Positions 1,842 through 2,685 of a DNA stretch of 22,129 nucleotides are shown one piece after another. This DNA is from a virus (Duplodnaviria > Heunggongvirae > Uroviricota > Caudoviricetes), in the IMG/VR virus record IMGVR_UViG_2526164668_000016, positions 1-22,129 of that record; one strand, written 5' to 3'. Both the position numbers and the translations under genes were made by a program. Every line of letters begins with the position of its first letter. Position 1 is the stretch's first letter. Under the pieces are notes generated by a model, which saw only the letters and a list, made by a program, of their open reading frames with translations, did no database searches and was not told the DNA's origin.

Positions 1842-1908
1842 ATTCCAAAAACGATACATCCGACTTCTGTTTTAAAGGATGAGGAGTAAATAGCATGAAT
1901 TTAGTTCG

Positions 1909-2685
1909 TTGTTGTTATTCTTTTTTCTTTTTGGATGTGTTCTTTTATGTTCAATGAAATTATATGCTGAGCGCCTTGATGGTGGTGAAATCCAGTTTCA
2001 TGGTTTTGTTACTGATGAGGCACCTAAATGGACTTGGCAGATAGGTTCATCCGGACAGACTTGGGCCGTGGATACAGCTGATGCCCTAACAGAGAATGGG
2101 CAGCTTATTTTTGATTTGCATGATAAAGGTTCATTACCATTTCTTGAGGGGCATCTGTTCGAAGTGGCAGAGCGCGGTGGTCCTGGTTTTACGCCTTTTA
2201 TCACGTTCAGTAGTAATGGTCAGCCTTTTACGGTAACAGACGGAAACAGTGCCACTGCACAACATTTTCGTGCTTCTGTCCCGGTAAGTGATCCTGAAAA
2301 TGGTCAGGTGACAGGGCAACTTTATTTTACCCTTGATCAGGGGATGGCTGTCAGTACTGGTGTCCAGGAGGATGGCGTATCGGTACCTGCGGGGATGTCA
2401 CTGGTTAGTGGACAGAGTGTGACGAATGTTCAGTCCGGTAGTTTACCTCAAGAACTGAAGAACCGTTTATCTTCATTGTTGCTGATGAATCAGAAATTTG
2501 GTGGTGGAATGAGCGCAGTGGATAACGGGCAGGTTATCAGTCAGGGGATTCTTGCGGATGGCAGAGTCAAAAATCTTGCCGCTGCTTATGCATCTTCTGT
2601 GTCTGATTTTGAATTACACCTTCCGGCAGAAGGGACACCTGCTCAGTGGCAGGCAAAACTGAATGTTACGGTTACTGTGCAATGA
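1909..2685 (+). CDS. minor fimbrial subunit, FaeH-like (FaeG paralogue); start codon unresolved
   Basis: 258 aa; C-terminus LNVTVTVQ parallels the FaeG-like C-terminus. The RBS-served ATG at 1895 is out of frame by one base across a T6 tract (1921-1926); the in-frame start is a TTG with no SD. Confidence 0.6.

Follow-up and report, generated by a model that had tools for sequence, protein, structure and literature searches.

The leader-coding region of a faeH-like fimbrial gene in contig AIGV01000036.1 is broken by a T run that appears one base too short, and we suggest, with a probability of about 60%, that this T6 run is a homopolymer under-call in an indel-prone draft assembly. The window analysed here is the entire contig (22,129 nucleotides), which belongs to a 2012 draft (GCA_000250115.2). 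Under-calling is considered the best explanation because three kinds of evidence, the T7 runs of the relatives, other singleton indels in the contig and a set of insertions in its IS1 copy, together indicate an indel-prone consensus. On this view, ATG 1895 would be the normal start of the faeH-like gene, which belongs to a chaperone-usher operon of the F4 (K88) family and would encode a 263-aa pre-protein with a 25-residue Sec leader, and a T7 run in the leader-coding region would have been read as T6 through sequencing or assembly under-call. As judged from sequence comparison, the source strain probably carries an intact T7 gene. The frame break is therefore most likely not a real feature, and is otherwise a simple pseudogenising indel; either would be an ordinary finding.

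The Shine-Dalgarno sequence GAGGAG is located 8 nt 5' of ATG 1895, is identical in all T7 relatives, and is the true ribosome-binding site of the faeH-like gene. The frame opened by this ATG comprises 20 codons and is closed by a TGA at 1955-1957. The FaeH-like body is found in the -1 frame relative to ATG 1895 and ends at 2685; counted from TTG 1909 it has 258 codons, and no SD-like sequence was seen 5' of this TTG in the window. A reading of the window and its ORFs thus confirms two claims of the sequence-only reading, namely that the ATG with the strong SD opens a short frame of 20 codons, and that the body is accessible in the other frame from a TTG that lacks an SD. The T6 run is followed by a C and then by T5 at 1928-1932. 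Addition of one T to the T6 run fuses the ATG 1895 leader to the FaeH-like body, and the translation obtained is exactly equal to the protein of the T7 relatives, as the same reading had anticipated when it proposed that one extra T would give a pre-protein with a normal signal peptide. As the alignment with the T7 relatives shows, the first 11 codons from ATG 1895 are the true N-terminus of pre-FaeH, and the remainder of the short frame is out-of-frame read-through; M1 of the leader is invariant across homologues. A signal peptide contiguous with the mature domain is present in all T7 relatives and homologues but absent in the window, where the leader start and the body do not share a reading frame, and the public gene call on AIGV01000036.1 starts at ATG 1954 and gives a product of 243 aa without signal peptide.

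Two further properties of this region had been missed by the earlier reading. The TGA of the 20-codon ORF overlaps the in-frame ATG 1954 (ATGA), and T TTT TTC at 1921-1927 constitutes a -1 slippery heptamer. The window contains 39 homopolymers of at least 6 bases (including 18 T6, 4 T7 and 1 T8), and 9 of these runs have 7 or more bases. The T6 tract itself is not statistically special, its sole oddity being that it is one base shorter than in every relative. Coordinates of the features are collected in the table.

Table. Features of the contig that bear on the faeH-like gene and on consensus quality.
Feature	Position	Strand	Evidence
DUF5462 protein, 163 aa, FaeF operon position	194..685	+	PF17547 E=1.2e-63; annotation of relatives
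FaeG-position protein, 287 aa, Fimbrial_K88	907..1770	+	PF02432 E=1.5e-28
Perfect 13-bp inverted repeat, 7-nt loop	1810..1842	+	Lies 3' of the major-subunit-like gene (stop at 1770) and 5' of the faeH SD
Shine-Dalgarno GAGGAG	1881..1886	+	Read in window; same in T7 relatives
Truncated leader ORF, 20 codons + TGA	1895..1957	+	ORF reading; alignment with T7 relatives
FaeH-like body ORF, Fimbrial_K88 family	1909..2685	+	ORF; PF02432 on repaired protein
T6 run, site of -1 deletion or under-call	1921..1926	+	T7 in every same-allele record read
FaeI-like minor subunit, 254 aa, intact	2715..3479	+	PF02432 E=8.5e-70; WP_001434433.1 in relatives
IS1 copy, 774 bp (canonical 768 bp plus six 1-nt insertions)	5692..6465	-	Alignment with IS1 copies
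A5 run, second singleton homopolymer contraction	9083..9087	.	A6 in L014, L015, L016 and the OkiPb01716 chromosome

The repaired protein, i.e. the translation with one T added, matches PF02432 (Fimbrial_K88) over residues 25-263 with E=6e-74 and 249 bits (cut-off 26.2), and is 75-90% identical to proteins named FaeH. It shares with K88 FaeH the fold family (PF02432), an end-to-end alignment that includes a leader of 25-27 aa, and a conserved mature N-terminus, LDGGEIQF; it differs from K88 in that the faeH leader is frame-broken in AIGV01000036.1. When the protein is aligned with 12 homologues (262-265 aa), M1, the Ala at -1 and the LDGGEIQF motif of the mature part prove invariant, and the 263-aa form is thus taken to be the ancestral product. 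An NCBIfam search gave no match for any of the fimbrial proteins, and a PDB search for sequence relatives of FaeH found none.

The order of genes also resembles that of a fae operon (usher, chaperone, DUF5462 at the FaeF position, major subunit, FaeH, FaeI). The operon of the relatives consists of genes for a PapC-type usher, a PapD-type chaperone and a DUF5462 protein, a K88-type gene of 287 aa, faeH, and a faeI-like gene. The faeH-like gene is accordingly placed 3' of the major-subunit gene of a chaperone-usher operon, with usher and chaperone just upstream in the relatives, and the 5' edge of the window lies in the 3' end of faeE. The gene at the FaeG position encodes what is presumably an F4-family major subunit or adhesin; its identity to other FaeG-like proteins of plasmids does not exceed 31% (29.7% to K88 FaeG of UMNK88), in contrast to the 75-90% seen for FaeH and FaeI. 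Because of this divergence, the sequences point away from K88 and towards an unnamed fimbria of the F4 family whose major subunit or adhesin is novel. It is carried by a handful of IncF plasmids from cattle and farm E. coli.

The inverted repeat upstream of the faeH SD is not a canonical terminator, and probably forms an intercistronic mRNA hairpin of the type that sets the stoichiometry of major to minor subunit in fimbrial operons. No terminator or promoter consensus was found in 1600-2800, and an internal faeH promoter was rejected as there is no sigma-70-like site in this region.

The tract reads T7-C-T5 in all of the ten independent same-allele records in which it was read, so that the comparison of tract length in related strains, proposed earlier as a check, gave a uniform answer. 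Five of these records are complete plasmids (C7, C3, VG48B2, OkiPb01716 and RHB25-C16) and four are NCBI draft contigs (L008-L011); the tenth is a contig from a food metagenome, the latter being the only match when viral, GTDB-representative and metagenome contigs were scanned for a tract of T5-T10. In the T7 relatives, the equivalent of ATG 1895 opens a 263-aa pre-protein whose leader aligns with those of all FaeH homologues. An exact look-up of the intact 263-aa product placed it in 409 indexed blocks of public assemblies, Logan assemblies among them. The T6-specific product of 258 aa, started at the TTG, is found on no contig and is absent from a collection of 15 billion proteins. For the 243-aa product that starts at the internal ATG there are 202 indexed blocks; of these, the 24 that hold the longest contigs were read, and the places shown are all NCBI contigs with T7. 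Among the records read, T6 was seen only in the window.

If the run was under-called, similar errors should be visible elsewhere in the contig, and other singleton indels are indeed found there without singleton substitutions. Over positions 1-5770, the T6/T7 indel is the only difference between the window and both C7 plasmid A and pRHB25-C16_2. Over 6349-16707, the single base difference from L014, L015 and L016 is a second contraction, A5 instead of A6, which is intergenic and lies between divergent repressor-type genes of a prophage. L014 also has ambiguous N positions, and these three assemblies, of which L016 is derived from Logan SRR254187, are otherwise 100% identical over 9.2-10.3 kb. 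The approximately 16 kb with identical comparators thus contain two singleton homopolymer contractions and no singleton substitution. Real mutation spectra of E. coli are dominated by substitutions. We infer that the singleton indels of this contig are technical in origin.

The IS1 copy displays a second class of probable errors. The six 1-nt insertions (at 5772, 5797, 5807, 5820, 5885 and 6073) fragment insB and leave insA intact. Among about 74,000 IS1 places in 5,426 complete E. coli genomes the best match is 98.5-98.7%, and none of these copies shares the six insertions; the copy looks like the artefact of a collapsed-repeat consensus. In addition, AIGV01000036.1 continues across IS1 and also across an IS3-family element, although short-read assemblies are interrupted at such places (L014-L016 end at IS1), which suggests that the assembler placed a collapsed repeat consensus in this contig. 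Of the seven insertions that the contig has outside homopolymers, six repeat the base found two positions earlier (XY to XYX), a pattern that we interpret as the probable carry-forward signature of flow chemistry. Both the singleton -1 contractions in T7 and A6 runs and the apparently spurious 1-nt insertions, which duplicate a base close by and cluster in the collapsed IS1 repeat, resemble homopolymer errors of early pyrosequencing or hybrid drafts, an attribution drawn solely from the error pattern in AIGV01000036.1. Frameshifts that are possibly sequencing or assembly errors have been remarked by another group (PMC5592225) in drafts of the DEC collection (Hazen et al. 2012; AIGK-AIGO and AIGS), which are neighbouring accessions of AIGV01000036.1.

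Two smaller irregularities are found towards the end of the contig. There is a singleton A insertion at 20068 (AAAAAAT[A]GCCC) relative to two relatives, and the final 14 bases contain two mismatches (22116-22120) to which a 616-aa SASA esterase product, found on no other contig, owes its stop codon. Both are probably contig-end or consensus noise.

Some observations speak against an under-call, and for a genuine and recent -1 frameshift (T7 to T6) in the plasmid faeH of this strain, by which the body would have been uncoupled from the SD, the ATG and the signal peptide and the gene would be a pseudogene. Such a mutation could arise by ordinary replication slippage in a 7-nt run and be fixed by drift, relaxed selection or decades of storage. 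Seven-base runs are natural indel hot spots, and old culture-collection strains accumulate real frameshifts. The deposited sequence does read T6; the other 5.7 kb of the fae segment are free of errors, which speaks for a good local consensus. Logan is one of the sources given for the 243-aa product, whereas Logan contigs with T7 give a call of 263 aa, so that some independent read-based assembly, possibly of the source strain itself, may also carry a non-T7 tract. The operon may also decay in the wild, as the faeI-like gene appears to be split in another assembly. We regard a genuine frameshift as quite possible but less probable than an under-call, since T6 stands alone against the ten records read and the intact product is present on hundreds of contigs, and since T6 co-occurs with a second homopolymer contraction and with implausible IS1 insertions in a contig that has no singleton substitution.

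The assembly with the split gene is L032 (GCA_037022845.1), in which the faeI-like gene at 2289-3178 is called in two pieces of 193 and 87 aa; the call for its DUF5462 gene runs off the end of the locus, giving 101 aa versus 163. This pattern may reflect frameshifts, real or technical, elsewhere in the fae operon.

Were the T6 run real, ribosomes loaded at the SD would end at the TGA at 1955-1957 and produce a 20-aa peptide. Re-initiation at the overlapping ATG 1954 would yield a leaderless FaeH of 243 aa that could not enter the Sec/chaperone-usher pathway, and initiation at the TTG would give a leader with no charged n-region, from a start with no SD. By either start the gene would be expected to be a functional null, and loss of a minor shaft subunit, with reduced or altered fimbriation, would be the expected outcome.

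The sequence-only reading had offered an assembly error, an inactivating mutation and a slipped-strand phase switch as the three alternatives for this site. The first two both remain live, with the evidence from within the contig in favour of the error, whereas the phase switch finds no support in the tract lengths, which are T7 in 10 of 10 relatives, or in the conservation of the tract. As a contingency tract, the leader-coding T run would turn FaeH, and hence fimbrial assembly, ON at T7 and OFF at T6 or T8. The position of the tract in the signal-peptide coding region gives such a switch a clean ON/OFF frame logic, and a sister allele (91% identical; VG12A2, DEC9B) likewise has a long T run there, T5-A-T8, which is in frame. 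Slipped-strand phase variation within signal-peptide coding regions occurs in Neisseria, at the poly-G tract of pilC and the CTCTT repeats of opa, where, as in the proposed switch, a repeat tract inside the leader-coding sequence sets the frame of the mature protein by its length. The Neisseria tracts, however, have more bases or several repeat copies, and their length varies both between isolates and inside a single isolate. By contrast, the faeH tract has 7 nt and is invariant in every relative read: no T6 or T8 was seen among same-allele isolates, and 409 blocks hold the intact product. At 6-7 nt the tract is neither long enough to be hypermutable nor above the background of the window with its 39 runs of 6-8 bases. 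It is also not conserved across orthologues, given the interrupted T5-A-T8 of the sister allele and more distant FaeH leaders (P0003, P0013, P0123, P0126 and others) that lack a Phe-encoding or T-rich run.

The regulation and role of the subunit argue in the same direction. Transcription is the level at which F4-family operons are regulated. A switch would be poorly placed on a minor shaft subunit, and in the K88 model FaeH is such a subunit and not the adhesin (PMC3174951), whereas the earlier proposal had named a minor subunit or adhesin as the switch target; its incorporation into fimbriae as a shaft subunit is established for K88 only (PMC3174951). In K88, faeH stop mutants still make fimbriae, and their binding is unchanged (PMC3174951). 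A contingency tract is thus considered highly unlikely. It is, if anything, even less probable that a genuine switch was caught in its OFF state (T6) in one isolate and tunes assembly of the unnamed F4-family fimbria of cattle-associated E. coli; were this true, it would be a rare homopolymer contingency locus in a chaperone-usher operon of E. coli.

A final alternative is that the T6 run is real but decoded, with a -1 ribosomal slip on T TTT TTC, or transcriptional slippage on the run, restoring exactly the wild-type pre-protein of 263 aa in small amounts. In the frame of ATG 1895 the heptamer conforms to X XXY YYZ, and a -1 shift there, as derived from the sequence, yields a product identical to that of T7. 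A downstream stimulatory structure is lacking, however (fold of 1921-2010, z = -1.0), and no relative keeps the two-frame layout, all of those read being in-frame T7. Six T's are too few for efficient slippage of RNA polymerase. Programmed frameshifting was therefore rejected for want of a stimulatory structure and of conservation, and decoding of T6 in general seems scarcely credible.

The leaderless gene model is also in use beyond this contig. PGAP annotates a 243-aa faeH (WP_000780632.1) from the internal ATG on complete plasmids with an intact T7 gene (L001 4176-4907, L002 1176-1907, L028 376-1107 and L029 376-1107, all equivalent to window 1954-2685). This call omits the SD-linked ATG and 20 leader residues, and because the leaderless model is applied, the annotated FaeH of T7 plasmids has no signal peptide. 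The 91% sister allele is annotated at its full length of 263 aa. We suspect that a frameshifted draft, AIGV01000036.1 or one like it, was the seed of the truncated WP_000780632.1 model. The biological weight of the frame break itself is small, being at best the knockout of a fimbrial minor subunit in one strain.

The contig is composite. Positions 1-6465, which end in IS1, match fae plasmids at 99.9%, and positions 6466-21358 match at 99.9% a lambdoid prophage in the OkiPb01716 chromosome; an ORF at 6439-6708 (-) is a fusion of prophage and IS1. Three other assemblies share the prophage-IS1 junction, and their contigs end at the IS1 or a short way into it. Each flank is thus attested elsewhere together with IS1, and the combination of fae, IS1 and prophage is unique to AIGV01000036.1. 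No target-site duplication accompanies the IS1 copy, and in C7 plasmid A and pRHB25-C16_2 a different sequence lies to the right of it. The join of plasmid fae and prophage via IS1 has two candidate explanations, a chimera produced by repeat collapse and a real fusion mediated by IS1. AIGV01000036.1 should be flagged as indel-prone and possibly chimeric across IS1, and caution is advised when it is used for prophage or plasmid analysis.

Within the prophage, a poly-G run at 18005-18012 lies about 95 bp upstream of a gene for an AraC-type HTH protein (18107-18820). This run is G8 in the window, G9 in L023 and G10 in OkiPb01716, and such length variation among near-identical prophages might affect expression of the AraC-type gene. 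The HTH protein product, of 237 aa, is indexed in 7,648 blocks.
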